DNA of 64,000 nt. Origin: Bacteroidetes bacterium GWF2_49_14 (lineage in GTDB: Bacteria; Bacteroidota; Bacteroidia; Bacteroidales; UBA12481). Below are positions 33,531 through 41,980 of the stretch, piece after piece. The position numbers and the translations under genes are program-made. The notes beneath the pieces were generated by a model, which saw only the letters and a program-made list of their open reading frames with translations, did no database searches and was not told the DNA's origin. The first letter of the stretch is position 1. Each line of letters starts with the position of its first letter. The stretch spans positions 40,633 through 104,632 of the forward strand of contig MEOR01000081.1 of NCBI GenBank assembly GCA_001769295.1, in the 5' to 3' direction.

Positions 33531-33888
33531 GCCGGCAGCAGACCGTTCTATCGCTGGTCCGTGAAAGCGGACGAGAGGAAAGTCCGGGCAACGCAGAGCG
33601 CCATGCTTCCTAACGGGAAGGTGCCGAGAGGCACAGTAGTGTAACAGAAAACAACCGTCCCGGATTACGGGATAAGGGTGAAAAGGCGGGGTAAGAGCCC
33701 ACCAGTCCGTATGGTGACATTCGGAGTTGTACACCTCATGGGTTGAAAGGCCATGTATACCGGCAATTAAGGGCTGCTCGCCCGATGTCGGGGGGTAGGT
33801 CGTTTGAGTAAACGGGCAACCGGTTACCTAGATAAATGATAGAATTCCGGCAACGGAAACAGAACCCGGCTTATAGGTCTGCTGCTTT
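33531..33888 (+). ncRNA. rnpB: RNase P RNA, bacterial type A
   Basis: Universal motifs GAGGAAAGTCCGGGC (P4 5' strand), ACAGAAAACAACCG, AAGGGTGAAA..GCGGGGTAAGAGCCCACC and ACAGAACCCGGCTTAT (P4 3' strand). P1 pairing is gcagcagacc (33535..33544) with ggtctgctgc (33876..33885). Ends are approximate. Confidence 0.9.
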
Positions 33889-34040
33889 TTTATCCTCGTT
33901 TTTTAAACGTTCATCAAATTGTTTTAAACTTTCACTTAACTAAGCCGAAATGAATTGGTTATGCCCGGCTTTTTTTTTATTTTTGAAATGACTTAGAAAC
34001 AAGAGTGTTAAGAATAAAATATTTGACGTTCATAAAAAAG

Positions 34041-34088
34041 TTTCAAAATTGGGGTTACCTTTTTATAAAGAACAGGATCAACAGATGG
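34041..34088 (+). promoter_or_regulatory. Shared regulatory block, copy 1 (upstream of and running into the sigma-factor start codon)
   Basis: TTTCAAAATTG (34041..34051) plus a 36-nt block GGTTACCTTTTTATAAAGAACAGGATCAACAGATGG (34053..34088). The block is 27/36 identical at identical spacing to 38966..39001 upstream of the peptide gene. Confidence 0.45.
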
Positions 34089-34660
34089 TGCATTACACCG
34101 TTGAAGCCATCCTCGAGGGGCTGAAAAACAGTGACAATAGTGTACTTGAGTTTGTCTACAGGAAGTATTTTCCGATCGTAAGGTTCTTTGTCATAAAAAA
34201 CAGCGGAACGGATGAGGATGCAAAGGATATTTTCCAGGAAGCAATGATCCTCATGTATAAAAGGCTGAAAGATGGTACTCTTGATTTAACCTGTGCCTTC
34301 AAAACCTATCTCTACTCAGTATGCCGCATACTCTGGATGAGACATCTTGAAAGGAGACAGATCAAAACAGACGACCTATCGGACAATCAGGTTTTCATAG
34401 ATATTGAAGACCAGATTGAAGATCAGGTTACTGAGCAGGAGAGATTTCGTTTGTACCAGAAGCATTTTCAGACGCTTCACAAAGATTGTCAGGAAATCTT
34501 ACGACTCTTCCTGAAGAAAGTTCCGCTTAAGGAGATTGCCCAGCTGGTTAATATTAAAAGTGACAAATACCTGAAGAAAAGAAAGTTTGAATGTAAGGAG
34601 ACTTTGACTAAGCGAATACAAAATGACCCTGATTATAAACGATTAAGAAATGATAGTTGA
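34085..34660 (+). CDS. ECF-like sigma-70 family RNA polymerase sigma factor
   Basis: ORF 34049..34660 starts at TTG. ATG 34085 (MVHYTVEAILEGL) is preferred because the upstream 36 nt recur non-codingly at 38966. Region 2 is DAKDIFQEAMILMYKRL...FKTYLYSVCRILWMRHLERR. Region 4 is CQEILRLFLKKVPLKEIAQLVNIKSDKYLKKRKFECKETL. Confidence 0.8.
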   Translation: MVHYTVEAILEGLKNSDNSVLEFVYRKYFPIVRFFVIKNSGTDEDAKDIFQEAMILMYKRLKDGTLDLTCAFKTYLYSVCRILWMRHLERRQIKTDDLSDNQVFIDIEDQIEDQVTEQERFRLYQKHFQTLHKDCQEILRLFLKKVPLKEIAQLVNIKSDKYLKKRKFECKETLTKRIQNDPDYKRLRNDS

Positions 34661-35780
34661 TATAAGTTTATCAGAATTGTTCGACCGGTACCTCGAAGAT
34701 GACCTCAACATCCTCGACAGGCAGGAAATCGAACTTCGGCTAGCTCAGGATCCGGCTTTTGCCAATCGGTTTAAGCTCCACAAAGAGATTGATCAGGCTG
34801 TGATGGAGAGCGAAATAATGCAATTCCGGAAACAGCTTGAAATGATCCAGACCGATAATCCCGATCTTGTTAAAGACAGTCCTATGGAAGTTGCGAGGTT
34901 TTTCGAACCCGAAATTGACCGTGCGATCCTGGAAGAAGATGTAATGAGCCTGCGAAATCAATTGAGCAGGATTCATGCTTCCATAATCGATGATGTTGAC
35001 GCTTCCGAGATTCCTGGTTATGCAATTATTGAGGAAGCAATTATAAATCAGGATGCTGTGGTTCTGCAGGCTGAGCTGAAGGAGTTTACTAATTCACGCT
35101 TGTCGGGAGCCTTGCCGGAAGAGCTTGAAGGAATTAAACTCAGCAGGGAAATTGACCAGGCTCTTCTTGAGGAGGATGTCATGGAACTAAGAGAGAAACT
35201 CACCGCCATTGGAGACCAGGTAACAGGAAAAACTCTTGTTGTCAGTTCCAGACGGAAAATTATAACCACAATTACTTCCATTGCGGCTGTCCTAACCTTT
35301 CTGATCTCCGGCACCATAGTACTGATGCAGAATCCCACTATTTCCGGTAACCAGAGATTGTCCGGTATGTTTGAGAATTACGGAAGCATCAGTGAATCAC
35401 GTGGACCGGTGGATGCAGTAAACAAAATAACAAACACTGCAGTTCACCTGTATAATAATAAACAATATCCATTGGCCGGTCCACTGTTTGATGTCTACCT
35501 TGAACAGAATGATTCTGATGATGAAGTGGTCAAAGTTTATGCCGGTCACTGTGCCCTGGAAACCAATGATCCTGACAAAGGGATACGTTATCTTTCAAGT
35601 ATTACCTCAGAAGCCCCGGCCTATATAGATGCTCAGTGGTACCTGGCTGGCTGTTATCTGAGAAAGGATCAACCGGCTGTAGCAATTGACATAATTGAAA
35701 AACTAAGTAAAAACGATAAAATAGACAGGTATCCTTATCCAATCGAAAAACTGCTGAAAAAACTTCGCAAGGTCGAATAA
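34650..35780 (+). CDS. Putative anti-sigma factor: single-pass membrane protein with four internal repeats and a TPR-like C-terminal domain
   Basis: 376 aa. 11-nt overlap with the sigma gene. The N-terminus LFDRYLEDDLNILDRQEIELRLAQDPAFANRF resembles anti-sigma N-terminal domains. Four copies of EID-A-L-EEDVM-LR--L--I lie at aa 46-66, 88-108, 126-146 and 167-187. TM helix at about aa 204-226. The C-terminus holds 2-3 TPR-like helix pairs. Confidence 0.5.
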   Translation: MIVDISLSELFDRYLEDDLNILDRQEIELRLAQDPAFANRFKLHKEIDQAVMESEIMQFRKQLEMIQTDNPDLVKDSPMEVARFFEPEIDRAILEEDVMSLRNQLSRIHASIIDDVDASEIPGYAIIEEAIINQDAVVLQAELKEFTNSRLSGALPEELEGIKLSREIDQALLEEDVMELREKLTAIGDQVTGKTLVVSSRRKIITTITSIAAVLTFLISGTIVLMQNPTISGNQRLSGMFENYGSISESRGPVDAVNKITNTAVHLYNNKQYPLAGPLFDVYLEQNDSDDEVVKVYAGHCALETNDPDKGIRYLSSITSEAPAYIDAQWYLAGCYLRKDQPAVAIDIIEKLSKNDKIDRYPYPIEKLLKKLRKVE

Positions 35781-35784
35781 GCGG

Positions 35785-35861
35785 CTTACAGTTTCCAACC
35801 CGTTCCCGCTGATTTCCTTTTTAAGTTTTAAAGTGCAGTTCTGAAGTTTCTTACAGTTTCC
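35785..35861. repeat. Direct repeat CTTACAGTTTCC (two copies, with extended similarity) in the convergent intergenic spacer
   Basis: Exact 12-mers at 35785..35796 and 35850..35861. Flanks are similar (aACCcGTtCC versus gACCGTCC). Confidence 0.5.
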
Positions 35862-35876
35862 GACCGTCCGTTTCCA

Positions 35877-38825
35877 TTATATCCCCGCTTTTGGCGGGGA
35901 TTTCTTTTTCCATTGTGTAACAAAAAGACCAAAGAGACTTACTGGAATCAGTAATAACCATAAAATCGCATAAGATTTAGGTTTCGGGAAATCCAAAGTC
36001 AAGTTCTGCCCCACAGGTAAAACTGCCGCCCAGAACCGAGGATGAGCTTGCAGCTGATCAGCTGCCGCGAGGTACGCTAACTTACTGTTCCTTAATGCAG
36101 CTGCAATAGGCTGGTCCTTAATCAAATTGCTATAAAATCCGGACATAATCTTCTCGCTTGATTTGTCATCCACCGTCCATAGTGTCATAATTATTACCGG
36201 GCAGCCAGCAAATAGAAAAGCTCGCCCAAGGCTCATAATCCCTTCGCCCGCAGCCAATTCCCCGGATCCGGTTTCGCAAGCGGACAAAACCACCAGGTTG
36301 GAATTCAGGGACAGATTATAAATCTCATGGCTGAACAGGCAACCATCCTCCGTTTTGTCCGAGCCCGGTGTGAAAACCAGGCATGAGTTCATGGGCTTTT
36401 CCCGGTCGGTTAAGGTATGCATTGCCAAATGCAGAATGGTATAATCTGAGCAAATGTTTTTAAAGGTTCCCTCCCTGGCTCCATTTTTTATGAGCAGCCT
36501 TCCCCCGATTGATTCCCGGGCGGATCTGGCCTCTTTCAGTGTTCCACTCAGCTGTGGCAGCGCATCCCCCTTGTTTCTCAGGAACTCTATTGATTGTATT
36601 CTGGCAGGTTTATAAACAGGCGCAACTGCCAGGATAGACCTGGTGGCCTCCTTCTTATGAACAGGATGGAATTGATATAAAGTTGCGGTAAACCCGTATG
36701 AGACTATATGTTCCCTTATGAGATACTCATAACTGTGGAAGTCATGTTTCACGGCCTTACCCGATGGTTTTATCAAGGCATCAAATGAAATGTAATTAAG
36801 CAATCCATCAGGAATTATTATCAATTCCTTATTCTCAATCATTCCTTCAAATGGTTGGATAAGAATACTATAAAGGCCGGATGAGGCTTCATAAAAGGAC
36901 CTCATCTCACTGCCATTATAGGTGGAATACCCACCTTTCATGTAGTTGATTAAAAAGTCAGTTCTTGCCATGGTCAGGCTATCCAGTGGAATCATGAAAA
37001 CCTGGCTTTCCGGTCGGCTCACCGCAATGCAAATGATAGCTTCAGCGGTCATGGAATACTGAAGCATGACTTCATTTTCGCGCAAGGACGCTGCCGTCTG
37101 ATCCAGGCTGATGACCGACCGGTCGAATTTGGAACGATAATAGTCCGGATACTTTGTCTCATAAGTTCTTATCAGGCTATCTTTCTTAATGTTAAGCCGA
37201 AAACTCTCAGCCTCAAGCTCCTTTATCAATTCTATATTTTTAGCGCTCGAGGCGGACTGCCTTGCAAGATAGCCCTGGACTTCGGATAGCTTGATATCAA
37301 TTTCTTTTTCAAGGGACAGATCCTCGGCGAGAATGATTCCTGATTTTGTTTCACTGTCGCTCATTGCCCTCCATAGTCCTGCCGATTTGGATATTTCGAT
37401 GAACTCGAAAAGGTTTTTGAGATCATCTCTGTCGAGGGTCCGTAAATAGAGGGTATATGCTACGCTGATCATCTCATCGAAAGAGCTTTCCTGCCTTCTG
37501 CTCAACTCAATCTGGCTTGAAGACTGCAGAAGTGTTCCTCGCGTTGAATCTATCAGGTTAGCTGTTGCGGCATAGTTTCTCATAGCAAGCCGGATATAAT
37601 CGATTTGGCCACTTTCTTCGCCCATATCTCTGTAAATACGAGATGTAAGAAGCAACAGGTTAATCAGATCCAGCGTATTCAGGCTTCTGATATTTTCCGG
37701 AGCATTCTCAATGTCTGCATCGCCAGGACCGGTTGCAATAAGTTTGAGAACCTCCCTTGTTCTTAATAATGCTTCTGAATAATTTCCTGTGGATCTAAGG
37801 AGATCTCCTTCAAGAAGTTTAGTCTCAACCAAGAGGTCAAGCGGTGGGTTAGCCTGCCCTTCGATTATCCGGGCCATCGAGGCCAACTCCGCAAGAGCTT
37901 TAAGTTCATCTTTATCAGCCAGTTGAATAAGTTGCGCTTTATTAATCATGGCCAGGAACCTAATCCGATCGTCAGGCTCAGCATCGGCCCTTTTATTCAA
38001 CACAATATCAAGAACTTCGCGTGCTTCAACAAAACGATTCAATTCAATCAGCGAATTGGAAAGGTTAGTATAAACCATGTCCTCATCGGTGATATTGAAT
38101 TCCTTAATCATTTCAATACTCTTATAAAAAGCCTCGATGGCTGCTTCATGATTAAAAAGGTTTTGGTAAACCAATCCCTTGTTATTCAGTAGTTTGGCTT
38201 TGTTGATGTTAGCCTTTTGACTCAATGTGCTATCCTTTATACAATCATTAAATATTAACATTGCCTGCTGCAAATACTCCAGTGCGCTATTGTATTCCCC
38301 GGCCTGTTTCCGCACGGTGGCTAAATTCAGGTACAATGAACCAATACCTAACTTGTCTGGCCGTGTCATTGACCTCAGCACAGCTATGGCCTTAAGATAG
38401 GTACTTTGACTTTCCGCAAGCCGGGAAATATCCTTGAGGAGTACTCCGGTGTTGTTTAAGGCTCTGTACATCCAATCCAGGTCATCATCCGGTTTGCCAG
38501 CAAAATCGACCGACTCAATCCATTCAATTAATACAGGCAAGTCTTTAGTATTTAGAAATCTATTATTGTAACGACTTATAACGTAGGCAATTATAACTTC
38601 AGTGTGGAAGTCCTGGTCGGGGCTCTGCAAGTATTTCACCAAGGGTTCAATGATTGGTTTCACCTTTTCTTCAGGCAAATTTTTAATCATATCCAGAATC
38701 TCATTGGCTCGGTTTTGATCGATTGCCTGGTAAGGATTGACGGACTGACAATGTCCGGAAGCCGACAACAAAATCAGGCTTATCAGCATTCCAACTGCAA
38801 TATTTTGAAAACTGTTTCTATTCAT
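35877..38825 (-). CDS. TPR-repeat CHAT-domain (caspase-like) protease, exported, with a C-terminal membrane anchor
   Basis: 982 aa. Signal peptide MNRNSFQNIAVGMLISLILLSASGHCQ. About 450 aa of TPR-like repeats (YLNLATVRKQAGEYNSALEYLQQA, LNNKGLVYQNLFNHEAAIEAFYKS and others). CHAT domain with ILHLAMHT (His) and NLVVLSACETGSGE (Cys). C-terminal TM YAILWLLLIPVSLFGLFVTQW followed by KKKSPPKAGI. Confidence 0.85.
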   Translation of the reverse strand: MNRNSFQNIAVGMLISLILLSASGHCQSVNPYQAIDQNRANEILDMIKNLPEEKVKPIIEPLVKYLQSPDQDFHTEVIIAYVISRYNNRFLNTKDLPVLIEWIESVDFAGKPDDDLDWMYRALNNTGVLLKDISRLAESQSTYLKAIAVLRSMTRPDKLGIGSLYLNLATVRKQAGEYNSALEYLQQAMLIFNDCIKDSTLSQKANINKAKLLNNKGLVYQNLFNHEAAIEAFYKSIEMIKEFNITDEDMVYTNLSNSLIELNRFVEAREVLDIVLNKRADAEPDDRIRFLAMINKAQLIQLADKDELKALAELASMARIIEGQANPPLDLLVETKLLEGDLLRSTGNYSEALLRTREVLKLIATGPGDADIENAPENIRSLNTLDLINLLLLTSRIYRDMGEESGQIDYIRLAMRNYAATANLIDSTRGTLLQSSSQIELSRRQESSFDEMISVAYTLYLRTLDRDDLKNLFEFIEISKSAGLWRAMSDSETKSGIILAEDLSLEKEIDIKLSEVQGYLARQSASSAKNIELIKELEAESFRLNIKKDSLIRTYETKYPDYYRSKFDRSVISLDQTAASLRENEVMLQYSMTAEAIICIAVSRPESQVFMIPLDSLTMARTDFLINYMKGGYSTYNGSEMRSFYEASSGLYSILIQPFEGMIENKELIIIPDGLLNYISFDALIKPSGKAVKHDFHSYEYLIREHIVSYGFTATLYQFHPVHKKEATRSILAVAPVYKPARIQSIEFLRNKGDALPQLSGTLKEARSARESIGGRLLIKNGAREGTFKNICSDYTILHLAMHTLTDREKPMNSCLVFTPGSDKTEDGCLFSHEIYNLSLNSNLVVLSACETGSGELAAGEGIMSLGRAFLFAGCPVIIMTLWTVDDKSSEKIMSGFYSNLIKDQPIAAALRNSKLAYLAAADQLQAHPRFWAAVLPVGQNLTLDFPKPKSYAILWLLLIPVSLFGLFVTQWKKKSPPKAGI
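35882..35909 (+). terminator. Rho-independent terminator of the sigma/anti-sigma operon, overlapping the last codons of the convergent CHAT gene
   Basis: tccccgc (35882..35888) / ttttg / gcgggga (35894..35900), followed by tttcttttt. Confidence 0.55.
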
Positions 38826-38890
38826 ATGGGAAAGTAAATAATTGCCGCATGAATATAGAAAGAAAGACAGGTCAAGAGACGATCTTCAGA

Positions 38891-38914
38891 ATTATACAAA
38901 TGTTTTTGTATAAT
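38891..38914. promoter_or_regulatory. Perfect 10-bp inverted repeat (operator-like) in the divergent CHAT / peptide intergenic region
   Basis: ATTATACAAA-tgtt-TTTGTATAAT at 38891..38914, flanked by direct TTCAGAA heptamers (38885..38891 and 38922..38928). Confidence 0.4.
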
Positions 38915-38942
38915 ACAGATATTCAGAAGATTAGCGAAATAT

Positions 38943-39001
38943 TTTCAAAATTGTATAGAAAACGAGGTTACCTTTTTAAGAAAGGAGGGATTAATAGATG
39001 G
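38943..39001 (+). promoter_or_regulatory. Shared regulatory block, copy 2 (upstream of the double-glycine peptide gene)
   Basis: TTTCAAAATTG (38943..38953), 12 nt of intervening sequence versus 1 nt in copy 1 (an 11-nt difference), then GGTTACCTTTTTAAGAAAGGAGGGATTAATAGATGG (38966..39001). Its ATG (38998) opens only a 5-codon mini-ORF (METVS*). Confidence 0.45.
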
Positions 39002-39036
39002 AAACTGTAAGTTAAAAACTTCTAAAATTCAAAGAA

Positions 39037-39168
39037 ATGGAACGGTTCAATCTCTCTTCGCTTGTTGCTGCTGCTCTCGCAGTTGATGAAATGATCAATG
39101 TTCGTGGTGGTGATGGTCCTGTAACCCCGCCAGTTAAAAAGGGCGAAGAAAGCGACATCATTCTTTAG
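39037..39168 (+). CDS. Double-glycine-leader precursor peptide (43 aa), predicted substrate of the adjacent C39 ABC exporter
   Basis: Not in the ORF track (<60 aa). Manual translation: MERFNLSSLVAAALAVDEMINVRGG|DGPVTPPVKKGEESDIIL*. The leader fits the GG-leader consensus (Gly -1/-2, Val -4, Met -7, Glu -8, Leu -12). It lies 97 nt upstream of the peptidase-domain ABC transporter, on the same strand. Confidence 0.65.
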   Translation: MERFNLSSLVAAALAVDEMINVRGGDGPVTPPVKKGEESDIIL

Positions 39169-39264: not shown

Positions 39265-41454
39265 ATGCCTTCATTAACCTATACCCGACAACTCGATGCG
39301 AAAGATTGCGGTCCTGCCTGTTTACGGATGATCGCTGGTTATTACGGCCAAAAATACTCCCTCCAATTTTTACGGGAAAGATCCTTTATCACCCGTCAAG
39401 GTGTAAGTTTACTTGGTATCAGCGACGCGGCAGAGTCAATCGGCTTTTCAACCCTTGGCGTTCGTCTCACCTGGGAACAACTGCTTAATGAGGCCCCCAA
39501 ACCTAGCATTATCCATTGGAACCAAAACCATTTTATCGTTCTGCAAAAAATCGGTGCGCGAAAAGTTCACGTTGCGGATCCGGCTCTTGGTATTTTGAAG
39601 TATTCGATCAAGGAGTTTAAAAAAGGCTGGATTTCAGCTGTCCATGAAGGGAATGAGGTTGGTTTGTGCCTCTTGCTAGAACCCACGCCTGAGTTTTATA
39701 AGATTGAGGGTGAACCTCAAAAACGGAACTCATTCCGATTTTTGCTGGAGTATTTCCGGCCACACAAGAAATACCTTGTCCAGCTTGTTAGCGGTATGCT
39801 GGTAGGATCGGTCATTTTACTGATTCTTCCCTTCCTGACCCAATCTGTTGTGGATATCGGAATTAGCAATCAGGATATGGGATTCATCTACCTTGTCCTT
39901 ATTGCTCAGTTGGTTTTAATTGCGGGAAGAACCAGTGTTGAGTTTATTCGATCCTGGATTCTTCTGCACATCAGTACAAGGATTAATATCGCACTAATAT
40001 CAGATTACCTGGTCAAATTGATGAGGCTTCCCACTTCATTTTTTGATACCAAAATGACCGGTGATATTTTGCAGAGGATAGGCGATCATACCCGCATTGA
40101 AACTTTCCTTACTCAATCAACCCTTAATGTTCTGTTCTCAATATTTAACCTGTTTGTTTTCAGTATTGTATTAGCAATTTATAATGCAAAGATCTTACTC
40201 TTGTTTTTAATTGGCAGTTTGTTGTATTTACTTTGGATCAGTTTGTTTCTTCGTAAGCGACGTGAACTTGACAACCGAAGGTTTATCCAGTTGTCAGAAA
40301 ATCAGAACAGCATTATTCAGATTGTATCTGGCATGCAGGAGATCAAGCTTAATACCTGTGAGCAGCAGAAGCGCTGGGACTGGGAGTTCATTCAGGCCAA
40401 GATATTCAGAATCAGGGTTAAGAGTCTTGCCTTGGTGCAATACCAACAGGTGGGTTCGGTGGTAATTAATGAAACAAAGAATGTGCTGATCGCATTTCTG
40501 TCGGCAAAGGCTGTTATTGAAGGCCAGATGTCGCTTGGTATTATGTTTGCAATCCAGTTTATAGTGGGGCAGATGAACAGCCCCATTGACCAGCTTATTA
40601 ACTTCTTTCATGCGGCACAAGATGCAAAGATCAGTCTTGAGAGGTTAGCTGAAGTACATGATCAACCTGTCGATGGAGTAGGCAGGGAGAGTAAGGTTGA
40701 CGAATTGCCGGCCAATATCAGCCTTAAAATTTCCGGATTGGTTTTTCAGTATGAAGGCCCGCATTCTCCAAGGGTGGTAGATGACATAACATTTGATGTA
40801 CCCGAAAACAAGGTAACTGCCATTGTCGGTTCGAGTGGAAGCGGAAAAACCACCCTTATTAAAATCTTGCTGGGATTATACCGGCCAGTTTACGGCGAGG
40901 TCCAGCTAGGCAATAGTTCCCTGGAGAATTACAATCAAAGGATTTATCGAAGCAAATGTGGGGCAGTTTTGCAAGACGGTTATTTGTTTTCAGACACGAT
41001 TGCAAAAAACATAGCATTGAGTGATGAATCGATTGATCCTGGAAAACTGGCCTTTGCTGCTGAAAAAGCTAATATCTTGGAGTTTATCAGGAGTTTTCCC
41101 CTTGGATTCAATTCGCGGATAGGGGTTGATGGACATGGTATAAGTCAGGGACAGAAGCAGCGGTTGCTGATTGCACGTGCGATTTACAAGGATCCCAGGC
41201 TTATTTTCTTTGATGAGGCCACGAATTCCCTGGATGCAAATAATGAAAGGATCATTATGGAAAACCTGGCAGAATTTTTTAAAGGCAGGACGGTTGTCAT
41301 TGTGGCGCACAGGCTTAGCACAGTTAAAAATGCTGATCAGATATTGGTTATGGAGAAGGGCAAGATAATTGAAACCGGAAAGCATGAGGAATTAGTGCGG
41401 TATCAGGGAGCCTACTATAATCTTGTTAAAAATCAGCTCGAATTAGGAATATAG
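39265..41454 (+). CDS. Peptidase-domain-containing ABC transporter (PCAT; C39 peptidase + TMD + NBD)
   Basis: 729 aa. C39 domain TRQLDAKDCGPACLRMIAGYYG (Gln/Cys), IIHWNQNHFIVLQK (His), VHVADPA (Asp). Six TM segments. NBD with GSSGSGKTT (Walker A), ISQGQKQRLLIARA (signature) and LIFFDEATNSLD (Walker B). Confidence 0.9.
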   Translation: MPSLTYTRQLDAKDCGPACLRMIAGYYGQKYSLQFLRERSFITRQGVSLLGISDAAESIGFSTLGVRLTWEQLLNEAPKPSIIHWNQNHFIVLQKIGARKVHVADPALGILKYSIKEFKKGWISAVHEGNEVGLCLLLEPTPEFYKIEGEPQKRNSFRFLLEYFRPHKKYLVQLVSGMLVGSVILLILPFLTQSVVDIGISNQDMGFIYLVLIAQLVLIAGRTSVEFIRSWILLHISTRINIALISDYLVKLMRLPTSFFDTKMTGDILQRIGDHTRIETFLTQSTLNVLFSIFNLFVFSIVLAIYNAKILLLFLIGSLLYLLWISLFLRKRRELDNRRFIQLSENQNSIIQIVSGMQEIKLNTCEQQKRWDWEFIQAKIFRIRVKSLALVQYQQVGSVVINETKNVLIAFLSAKAVIEGQMSLGIMFAIQFIVGQMNSPIDQLINFFHAAQDAKISLERLAEVHDQPVDGVGRESKVDELPANISLKISGLVFQYEGPHSPRVVDDITFDVPENKVTAIVGSSGSGKTTLIKILLGLYRPVYGEVQLGNSSLENYNQRIYRSKCGAVLQDGYLFSDTIAKNIALSDESIDPGKLAFAAEKANILEFIRSFPLGFNSRIGVDGHGISQGQKQRLLIARAIYKDPRLIFFDEATNSLDANNERIIMENLAEFFKGRTVVIVAHRLSTVKNADQILVMEKGKIIETGKHEELVRYQGAYYNLVKNQLELGI

Positions 41455-41455
41455 C

Positions 41456-41980
41456 ATGACTCACAGTGATCCTCAAATCGAACTGCGCCAGGAAGAACTC
41501 CGGGAGATACTCGGAATTGTTCCGCCATGGATTGTAAGGTGGGGGACTGTTCTGATAGCCATGGTGATACTTACCCTGTTAATTGGGGCAGCCTGGTTTC
41601 GATATCCCGACCGGATCAGCAGCCAGGTTGTCCTGACCGCTTCGAATCCAATTAAAGGGGAACTTTTTTTGTCAGTCAAAGATGCCGGAAAAGTGAAGAT
41701 TGGGAATCGCGTTGTTTTACATATTGATAATTATCCCTACATGCAATACGGAATGGTAAAGGGAACGGTTGAGCAAATCTCATTATGGCCTGAGGCAGAA
41801 TACTATAGGGTCGAGATAAGCCTGCCAGAAGGTATGAAATCGACCTATAAAAAAGAGCTGGTGTTTTCCAAGAATATGACTGGCCAGGCGCAGATTATTA
41901 CCGATAAGATGAGCCTTCTGGTTAGAATACTTGATCCTGTTAAAGGCCTTATTCGCAGAAAGAATAACCAGGATGTTTAA
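41456..41980 (+). CDS. Short HlyD-family (membrane fusion protein-like) protein: TM anchor plus beta-barrel domain only
   Basis: 174 aa. Starts 1 nt after the PCAT stop. N-terminal TM WGTVLIAMVILTLLIGAAWF. VVLHIDNYPYMQYGMVKGTVEQISL...MTGQAQIITDKMSLLVRIL resembles the C-terminal barrel of HlyD proteins. No lipoyl or coiled-coil hairpin region. Confidence 0.6.
   Translation: MTHSDPQIELRQEELREILGIVPPWIVRWGTVLIAMVILTLLIGAAWFRYPDRISSQVVLTASNPIKGELFLSVKDAGKVKIGNRVVLHIDNYPYMQYGMVKGTVEQISLWPEAEYYRVEISLPEGMKSTYKKELVFSKNMTGQAQIITDKMSLLVRILDPVKGLIRRKNNQDV

Follow-up and report, generated by a model that had tools for sequence, protein, structure and literature searches.

In the genome of Bacteroidetes bacterium GWF2_49_14 (Bacteroidota; Bacteroidales), the same short block of DNA stands ahead of two very different genes, one encoding a sigma factor and the other a small peptide, which raises the question of whether both genes obey a single regulator and which one that might be. 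The DNA analysed here, called the window throughout, is a stretch of 64,000 nucleotides (nt) from contig MEOR01000081.1 (assembly GCA_001769295.1, positions 40,633 to 104,632 of the forward strand), and all coordinates count from its first letter. An earlier note on this stretch had pointed out the repeated block and offered two explanations, i.e. a shared promoter, operator or 5' leader that puts both genes under one regulator, possibly the sigma factor itself, or a remnant of a duplicated 5' end of the sigma gene. We propose that the block is quite probably a promoter for an alternative sigma factor resembling those of the extracytoplasmic function (ECF) type, and that it is most likely read by the very sigma factor encoded at 34049-34660.

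The repeated block

An 11-mer, TTTCAAAATTG, occurs in the window at 34041-34051 and at 38943-38953, and is followed by a 36-nt block, beginning with GGTTACCTTTTTA and ending in AGATGG, at 34053-34088 (copy 1, at the sigma gene) and at 38966-39001 (copy 2, before the peptide gene). The 36-nt blocks align without gaps and are identical at 27 of 36 positions: the first 13 nt are the same, the next 9 nt share 2 matches, and 12 of the final 14 nt agree, with full identity over the last 6 nt. The 11-mer is separated from GGTTACC by 1 nt in copy 1 and by 12 nt in copy 2. In copy 2, the ATG at 38998 opens only METVS-stop, and the peptide gene starts at ATG 39037. In all these respects (coordinates, identity, gaps and METVS-stop) the earlier description was accurate.

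GGTTACCTTTTTA has exactly two occurrences in the window. A scan with a weight matrix of 73 non-redundant homologous sites gives both copies a score of 20.3 and finds no other site scoring at least 12, the top score in shuffled windows (n = 30) being 14.0. Because of this exact pair and the matrix scores in comparison with the shuffles, the GGTTACC block cannot be put down to chance. The many copies at random positions that would mark a dispersed repeat are likewise absent, as the matrix yields two sites only in the window and its sites in relatives are confined almost wholly to the genes of one module; a dispersed repeat is thus ruled out. Taken by itself, the 11-mer carries less weight: if one mismatch is tolerated, TTTCAAAATTG is found 5 times in the window against 5.15 expected, i.e. 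at chance frequency, and its second copy is missing in the closest relative (surveyed locus L001, with a 98% identical sigma factor).

Architecture of the motif

With positions counted from the first G of GGTTACC, the 73-site matrix resolves a two-part motif, GGGT[T/A]ACCTTTT and GGA[A/T]TAA, separated by about 11 variable bases. Upstream, from -24 to -5, lie A/T tracts phased at about 11-12 nt (A at -20 to -16, T at -15 to -10, A at -8 to -5); these are followed by a G at -1, GGT[T/A]ACCTTTT at 0 to 10, unconserved positions at 11-20 and the G G A A/T T A A of the second block at 21-27, in a rigid register that was not imposed by the site filter. A purine is found at +34, about 7 nt past the second block, in 69 of the 73 sites. 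Relative to this conserved purine the two blocks fall at -35 and at -13 to -7, and the arrangement therefore has the geometry of a promoter, with a -35 element, a -10 element and a start point. The spacer in the clade of the window exceeds that of most sites by 1 nt, which puts the predicted starts at about 34087/8 and 39000/1. On the sigma side, the predicted start falls within the long sigma open reading frame (ORF), on the G of the ATG at 34085-34087 or the first G of the GTG at 34088-34090. The elements of the two copies are as follows.

34029..34051, plus strand: copy 1, phased A/T tracts resembling an UP element, identified with the 73-site matrix; they hold TTTCAAAATTG and the sigma TTG at 34049-34051
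34052..34063, plus strand: copy 1, -35 block GGGTTACCTTTT, overlapping sigma codons 2-5 (G L P F)
34075..34081, plus strand: copy 1, -10 block GGATCAA, matching GGA[A/T]TAA at 6 of 7 positions
34087..34088, plus strand: copy 1, predicted transcription start at the conserved purine
38942..38964, plus strand: copy 2, phased A/T tracts, with TTTCAAAATTG at 38943-38953 in the distal unit
38965..38976, plus strand: copy 2, -35 block AGGTTACCTTTT, matrix score 20.3
38988..38994, plus strand: copy 2, -10 block GGATTAA, matching the consensus at 7 of 7 positions
39000..39011, plus strand: predicted +1 of the peptide transcript (conserved purine, covariation) and the 12-mer GGAAACTGTAAG that starts there

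In its two parts and in the T-run behind the first of them the motif fits ECF-type promoters, but its cores, T[T/A]ACC and GGA[A/T]TAA, depart from the AAC and CGT that such promoters have at a spacing of about 16-17 nt. Neither the block nor the DNA downstream of it contains the housekeeping consensus of Bacteroidota, TTTG at -33 and TAnnTTTG at -7; across the 73 sites the -7 box follows the motif exactly in none and with one mismatch in 6, and no exact box was found upstream of the motif either. A scan of the E. coli type proved uninformative, with 26 promoters found against 18.7 +/- 5.1 expected.

Two earlier suggestions do not survive this analysis. The 11-mer had been taken for a discrete operator moved by one helical turn between the copies; it is part of the phased A/T tracts, lying in the proximal unit in copy 1 (-12 to -2) and in the distal unit in copy 2 (-23 to -13), which accounts for the shift, and its second copy is absent from L001. 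Nor does GGTNACC, an odd palindrome, look like a symmetric operator, since the motif is asymmetric, with its T-run on one side only, and is always directed at the downstream gene.

Distribution of the motif among relatives

Our survey covered 80 genome and 80 metagenome loci with homologues of the sigma factor (98% to 32% identity; 1.82 Mb), in which sites with a matrix score of at least 15 were accepted. The 176 sites found are distributed over few kinds of gene. Thirty precede a sigma gene with an ATG start and about 14 a close-clade sigma gene with a TTG or GTG start (about 44 sigma genes in total), 47 precede genes for peptides of 34-70 amino acids (aa) with a double-glycine leader, and 53 stand before a small lipoprotein gene divergent from distant sigma homologues; the remainder belong mostly to peptide genes cut by contig ends, together with a few HisKA genes at the usual peptide position. 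Peptides homologous to that of the window are found behind the motif in 44 loci. The distance from motif to ATG depends on the class of gene (38-42 nt for sigma genes, medians of 79 for peptides and 66 for lipoproteins), and the internal spacing of the motif is constant. The -35 block of copy 1 is invariant in 14 of 15 close-clade loci, and that of copy 2 is kept before the peptide gene in L001, L002, L005, L006, L082, L083, L086, L087 and L089.

A motif on the strand of the sigma gene was present in all 14 evaluable loci of the close clade and in 28 of 79 loci at middle distance, where about 9 more have weak variants such as GGGTTACTTTTT…GAATTAA. In the distant soil clade it is seen at 6 of 66 sigma genes, and 60 of 66 loci have the divergent motif at the lipoprotein gene. 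Most of the remaining Prolixibacteraceae loci have a housekeeping-type box, TAATCTTTTG, immediately before the sigma ATG, and their peptide genes retain the motif; the peptide gene is thus the most constant target, and autoregulation of the sigma gene would be specific to some clades. In loci of at least 12 kb, the sigma gene is linked to genes for a CHAT protease (62 of 71), a transmembrane TPR protein (48 of 71) and an exporter (15 of 71). No transcription-factor gene is consistently part of this module; a sigma gene consistently is.

This recurrence of one motif before sigma and peptide genes, in distant genomes and amid unrelated flanks, strongly supports a shared promoter that places both genes under one regulator, as had been suggested. 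Its pattern by gene and clade is what would be expected if this family of sigma factors reads the motif. The part of the earlier proposal that named the island's own sigma factor as regulator stands to the extent that this protein is the most plausible reader, with recognition suggested by co-occurrence.

Some loci depart from the common arrangement. In the soil-metagenome loci L095-L160 (e.g. L108 6916, minus strand), the sigma factors are 32-37% identical to that of the window, and the motif, placed 76-80 nt ahead of the sigma gene but on the other strand, precedes a small repeat-rich lipoprotein gene (MKKLFIVLAVASLGFVACNN…); CHAT, TPR and peptide genes are absent from these loci. In L019 (15614), L038 (16794) and L050 (15307), the motif precedes a gene for a HisKA-type protein of 263-311 aa (…NISHEIRTPMN…) in the usual position of the peptide gene, where the output of the module may have been swapped. 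Three close relatives, L003, L084 and L088, have the sigma and transmembrane TPR genes followed directly by a C39-type exporter of the ATP-binding cassette (ABC) family, with neither a CHAT gene nor a peptide gene preceded by the motif.

The sigma factor and its start codon

The sigma factor matches the sigma70-ECF model TIGR02937 with 63.1 bits (cut-off 42.9) over residues 22-174 of 191, and Pfam Sigma70_r2 with 27.9 bits (cut-off 24); region 4 was not detected separately by Pfam. Its nearest solved relatives are ECF sigma factors, at E = 1.3e-4 only. In size and predicted domain content it corresponds to group 4 of the ECF class (about 170-220 aa, with sigma-2 and sigma-4 only).

Counted from TTG 34049 the protein has 203 aa, and from ATG 34085 it has 191 aa. 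The earlier note had argued for the ATG and had taken the N-terminal extension for non-coding. The relatives contradict this: all 12 distinct sequences of the close clade have a start codon as codon 1 (TTG in 10, GTG in L084, ATG in L006), and the position of ATG 34085 is occupied by ATG, TTG, GTG, TTA or ATA, the TTA occurring in L003 and L088, two of the loci mentioned above as being without CHAT and peptide genes. An in-frame stop occurs in about 46% of non-coding instances of the motif and in none of the close-clade sigma copies; most sigma homologues in databases are annotated with 203 aa and share a conserved N-terminal GLPF…QDQQ; and in L006, where the DNA motif is lost, the residues G-L-P are kept by synonymous changes (GGC TTA CCG) behind an ATG at codon 1. 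In the clade of the window, the sigma ORF thus most likely starts at TTG 34049.

The same codons also appear to be held constant as DNA. Non-majority synonymous usage in codons 2-5 (GGG TTA CCT TTT) is 0.04, compared with 0.33 in 59 equally conserved downstream codons, and the six-fold degenerate leucine codon 3 is TTA in 12 of 12 close-clade sequences. In L089 the -10 block has changed to the consensus GAATAAA at the cost of amino acid replacements (QDQ to ENK). This synonymous freezing, together with the coding start at TTG, means that in the clade of the window the block does double duty, as coding sequence and as an element at the level of DNA. There the sigma-side promoter lies within the ORF, in codons 2-12; in most clades it is found 38-42 nt upstream of the ATG.

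A transcript from about 34087 could encode a short form of the sigma factor only where an ATG or GTG is present, e.g. GTG 34088 in the window, and this form would start like distant homologues (MHY…). Alternatively, the transcript might mainly serve the downstream gene for the membrane TPR protein. About 35-70 nt upstream of the TTG, the close clade shares another conserved block at 33981-34014 (CTTTGGAAT…GTTA[A/G]GAAT), which matches neither the housekeeping consensus nor the GGTTACC motif and may give the long form a promoter of its own.

Genes of the module

The genes and other features around the two promoter copies are listed below.

33535-33889, plus strand: RNase P RNA, bacterial class A (Rfam, 263.5 bits)
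34049..34660, plus strand: ECF-like sigma factor of the sigma-70 family (TIGR02937, Sigma70_r2)
34650..35780, plus strand: single-pass membrane TPR protein, 376 aa (translation, TPR_19 match, AlphaFold2 model)
35781..35911, plus strand: probable 3' untranslated region (UTR) of the sigma operon, with CTTACAGTTTCC twice, GTTTCC-like repeats and a terminator at 35881-35901 followed by a T-run
35877..38825, minus strand: TPR-CHAT protease, 982 aa (CHAT match at 1.4e-50, TPR matches)
39037..39168, plus strand: 43-aa peptide with double-glycine leader, MERFNLSSLVAAALAVDEMINVRGG / DGPVTPPVKKGEESDIIL (ORF, homologues behind the motif)
39265-41454, plus strand: ABC exporter with C39 peptidase (Peptidase_C39 2.2e-33, ABC_membrane 1e-29, ABC_tran 3.8e-28)
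41456-41980, plus strand: short HlyD-like adaptor (partial match to TIGR01843)

The start of the membrane TPR gene overlaps the sigma stop by 11 nt. Its product, to which a protein of Bacteroidetes bacterium GWF2_49_14 is 100% identical, consists of a helical cytoplasmic N-terminus of about 200 aa, a transmembrane helix at about residues 203-226 and a periplasmic TPR domain (TPR_19 match), the latter modelled confidently by AlphaFold2 on the basis of 18 homologues; we regard it as a candidate anti-sigma factor or sensor. The DNA for its cytoplasmic half (34785-35183) contains three repeats of EIDxA(I/L)LEEDVMxLRxxL that form a 36-nt DNA family, and residues D97, L105, V177, L180 and R181 are invariant among homologues. 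The TPR-CHAT protein has an N-terminal signal peptide and a C-terminal transmembrane anchor and is thus predicted to be periplasmic; candidate catalytic His and Cys residues, 47 residues apart (LAMH…LSAC), were picked by eye.

The peptide of the window has a leader ending in …EMINVRGG, followed by an 18-aa core. It has no NCBIfam match itself, and one homologous peptide matches the leader model TIGR01847 with 17.7 bits (cut-off 15.7). Across the relatives the mature peptides, most of them acidic, measure 10-30 aa (median 17), and their C-termini differ by clade (e.g. …DIIL, …PIIITE and …DAYxDLN). Domain and family scans found no modification or immunity genes near the peptide genes. With its C39 peptidase and ABC domains and an adjacent double-glycine-leader precursor, the transporter has the features of a peptidase-containing ABC transporter. 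Peptide, exporter and adaptor genes, between which no strong terminator was found, probably form one operon.

Two further features flank the island and its peptide promoter. The RNase P RNA gene lies directly upstream of the island and is followed by a hairpin with a T-run at about 33945-33980 and then by the upstream region of the sigma gene. A near-perfect palindrome, TCAGAATTATACAAA / TTTGTATAATACAGA, occupies 38886-38919 in the divergent region that separates the start of the CHAT gene (38825) from the peptide promoter, and may serve as an operator or belong to the CHAT promoter.

A possible antisense segment behind the sigma operon

The 12-mer at the predicted start of the peptide mRNA has a counterpart behind the sigma operon: its reverse complement, CTTACAGTTTCC, occurs twice on the plus strand between the stop codons of the membrane TPR and CHAT genes, at 35785-35796 and 35850-35861. 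A duplex of -36.4 kcal/mol is predicted between 35799-35862 and the 47 nt, AUG included, at the 5' end of the predicted peptide mRNA; shuffled controls give -19.6 +/- 3.3 (z = -5.1), and none of the 300 came as low. For this duplex, z lies between -3.0 and -4.1 in four relatives, and L004 and L005 show no signal. The two regions covary. In the window, L001, L002 and L087, both the peptide +1 and the minus-strand copies in the intergenic region read GGAAACTGTAAG; in L082 the peptide +1 has GGAAACTGTTAA and the intergenic copies are GGAAACTGTTAG and GGAAACTGTTTA; and in L089 GGAAACGGA at the peptide +1 goes with GGAAACGGAAAC repeats.

A strong intrinsic terminator on the plus strand (35881-35901) lies behind this segment, which would thus be carried by the 3' UTR of the sigma operon. 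The terminator itself is located within the last codons of the convergent CHAT ORF (…KKKSPPKAGI*), and its hairpin is kept, with base changes, in L001, L082, L087 and L089. The segment may serve to hold back the peptide mRNA, but it could just as well be a copy of the peptide 5' UTR that was retained in inverted orientation. That the inverted copies of GGAAACTGTAAG have minus-strand promoters of their own was considered and rejected, because the -10 positions do not match on inspection.

Discussion

Overall, our data show that a motif of rigid two-part geometry, conserved across distant relatives and restricted almost wholly to one gene module, stands before both the sigma and the peptide gene of this island. 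Several points weigh against reading it as the promoter of the island's own sigma factor, and against the circuit that could be built on it. Which sigma factor reads the motif and where transcription starts are predictions from sequence. The -35 core is mostly TTACC, with the AAC of canonical ECF promoters in 12 of the 73 sites, and the -10 block is A/T-rich, the canonical CGT appearing in a subset only (CGTATTAA in some loci). Among the mid-distance loci, the motif accompanies the sigma gene in only about half. In the window itself, a transcript from about 34087 would leave out the TTG start, so that autoregulation of the full-length sigma factor cannot be assumed for copy 1. As for the candidate anti-sigma factor, relaxed Pfam scans of its N-terminus and those of three homologues returned no anti-sigma family and only noise (Phage_RpbA, E = 0.04), and the AlphaFold2 model has low confidence there (pLDDT, the predicted local confidence score, of 50-72). 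The peptide, finally, could be an effector instead of a signal.

Could the block be something other than a promoter? It might be the site of a transcription factor, with the real promoter elsewhere. GGTNACC is a short palindrome, the two blocks lie about two helical turns apart as would fit a two-part operator, the palindrome at 38886-38919 shows that other regulatory sites are possible nearby, and the start positions are predictions from sequence. However, an asymmetric motif that always faces its gene, with blocks at -35 and -10 relative to a conserved purine, is not what such a site would lead one to expect; the 38-42 nt before the ATG of distant sigma genes offer no space for a second promoter, an exact housekeeping -7 box follows none of the 73 sites, and what the module constantly includes is a sigma gene and not a transcription-factor gene. 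We consider this explanation unlikely. Much less probable still is a transcribed 5' leader, i.e. a structured RNA or translational operator common to both mRNAs. RNase P RNA is the only Rfam hit in the window and the block itself has none, folding energies do not stand out from shuffles (z of -1.5 to +0.8), the spacer shows no covariation, and the A/T tracts upstream suit a promoter; the nearness of the block to start codons and the short METVS ORF of copy 2 would speak for a leader, but this ORF is not conserved (L002 has GACGGAAAC in its place). The other explanation offered at the outset, that copy 2 is a decayed and functionless remnant of a duplicated sigma 5' end, draws on the overlap of copy 1 with the sigma ORF and on the reading G-L-P-F, followed by a stop, in the same frame of copy 2. 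Yet most clades have the motif outside the sigma ORF, with 38-42 nt between it and the ATG, and in such clades, too, it precedes peptide genes, where it is conserved independently. Moreover, the similarity is limited to the two functional blocks, with 2 of 9 matches in the spacer, and copy 2 is conserved in relatives in which the flanking intergenic DNA has diverged. These comparative data contradict a remnant, to which we give the smallest chance of all, and we reject it together with the leader.

If the block is a promoter read by the sigma factor of the module, what might the module do? One promoter type at the peptide and sigma genes and periplasmic TPR proteins in the same module are observed, and the presence of the same promoter on the peptide-exporter operon and at the operon of the sigma and membrane TPR genes would amount to a positive-feedback arrangement. 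In a circuit built on this wiring, the C39-ABC transporter would cleave and export the double-glycine-leader peptide, and the mature acidic peptide, DGPVTPPVKKGEESDIIL, would be sensed in the periplasm by the TPR domain of the membrane TPR protein or of the CHAT protease. Proteolysis of the membrane partner would then free the sigma factor, which would act on the sigma-side promoter and on that of the peptide-exporter operon and thereby close a positive feedback loop. By analogy with known systems we infer the role of the peptide as well as the anti-sigma and protease steps, and the complete picture, a circuit akin to quorum sensing that operates through an ECF-like sigma factor with periplasmic TPR/CHAT sensing, an antisense brake in a 3' UTR and a promoter embedded in coding sequence, is a tentative one, to which we give somewhat less than an even chance. 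Another reading keeps the promoter and drops autoinduction: the peptide would be a secreted effector, e.g. a bacteriocin, and the sigma factor would answer to another envelope signal. Peptides with a double-glycine leader that are exported by C39-ABC transporters are often bacteriocins, one leader in the family matches the bacteriocin-type model TIGR01847, and the pairing of the peptide with a receptor is itself an interpretation. On the other hand, the mature peptides look unmodified, are acidic and have a short median length of 17 aa, immunity and modification genes are missing nearby, and the peptide gene co-occurs tightly with two periplasmic TPR proteins. TPR domains commonly bind the C-termini of peptides. 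All in all, we find a mere effector rather doubtful, though not to the degree of the alternatives to a promoter.

How does this module compare with known systems? Autoregulated ECF promoters, such as those of RpoE/sigma-E and of sigma-W, -X and -M of B. subtilis, have the same rigid two-part -35/-10 arrangement with a T-run after the -35 element, a membrane-protein gene that directly follows the sigma gene and is co-transcribed with it, and a small regulon under the same promoter. Here, in contrast, the -35 core is GGGTTACC, the -10 element is GGA[A/T]TAA rather than of the CGT type, the promoter overlaps the first 12 sigma codons in the clade of the window, and the main member of the regulon is a secreted double-glycine-leader peptide. 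With the housekeeping promoters of Bacteroidota the motif has in common its A/T-rich surroundings and a short or missing leader, but not the consensus. In the streptococcal ComC/ComAB-ComX and BlpC/BlpAB systems, a double-glycine-leader peptide, C39-ABC export and an alternative sigma factor are likewise joined in a circuit with positive feedback. There, however, sensing is by two-component kinases or Rgg/ComR, with the sigma factor acting downstream, whereas here the peptide gene seems to be under direct control of the sigma factor's own promoter and the candidate sensors are periplasmic TPR/CHAT proteins in a Gram-negative envelope. The antisense segment brings to mind MicL and CpxQ, 3'-UTR RNAs of envelope-stress sigma regulons, in that an antisense seed lies just upstream of a terminator; unlike their targets, the one predicted here, from sequence, belongs to the circuit itself and comprises the start codon and 5' end of its peptide mRNA.

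The nearest characterized system is DdvS/DdvA of Myxococcus xanthus, in which an ECF sigma factor is paired with a transmembrane anti-sigma factor that has a periplasmic TPR-CHAT part; this TPR-CHAT domain has been proposed to start regulated proteolysis that releases the sigma factor, and DdvA-like proteins have been reported only in Myxococcota and one Comamonas species (PMC11506125). The ECF-type sigma factor, the single-pass membrane partner and the periplasmic TPR-CHAT module are shared with the island described here. Here, however, CHAT is not fused to the membrane partner but encoded by a separate convergent ORF of 982 aa, whose product has a signal peptide and a C-terminal anchor of its own; the zinc-binding (CHCC) anti-sigma part of DdvA has no counterpart in the partner found here, which has a small TPR domain and no cysteine in residues 1-200; and the output is a peptide with its exporter, not CBASS (cyclic-oligonucleotide-based antiphage signalling system) or CRISPR-Cas genes.

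A promoter shared by a sigma gene and its target is, taken alone, an ordinary type of element, and such sharing is routine. What makes this locus worth following is the circuit, the coding-embedded promoter and the antisense 3' UTR. Full-text literature searches turned up no description of the sigma/TPR/CHAT/peptide/C39 module or of its motif in Bacteroidota, and the main text of the paper on ECF reclassification does not mention a CHAT context. The module thus appears to be undescribed, and it is conserved across many genomes of Bacteroidales and Marinilabiliales. For the clade of the window, the likely start of the sigma ORF is corrected, and the block at this start provides an example of a promoter held intact at synonymous sites inside a coding region. 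The motif also offers a handle for reporter fusions and regulon prediction, with cultured carriers such as Prolixibacter and Mangrovibacterium at hand. If the peptide is indeed a signal, the module would represent a form of peptide-based cell-cell signalling in Bacteroidota that operates through the regulated release of a sigma factor.

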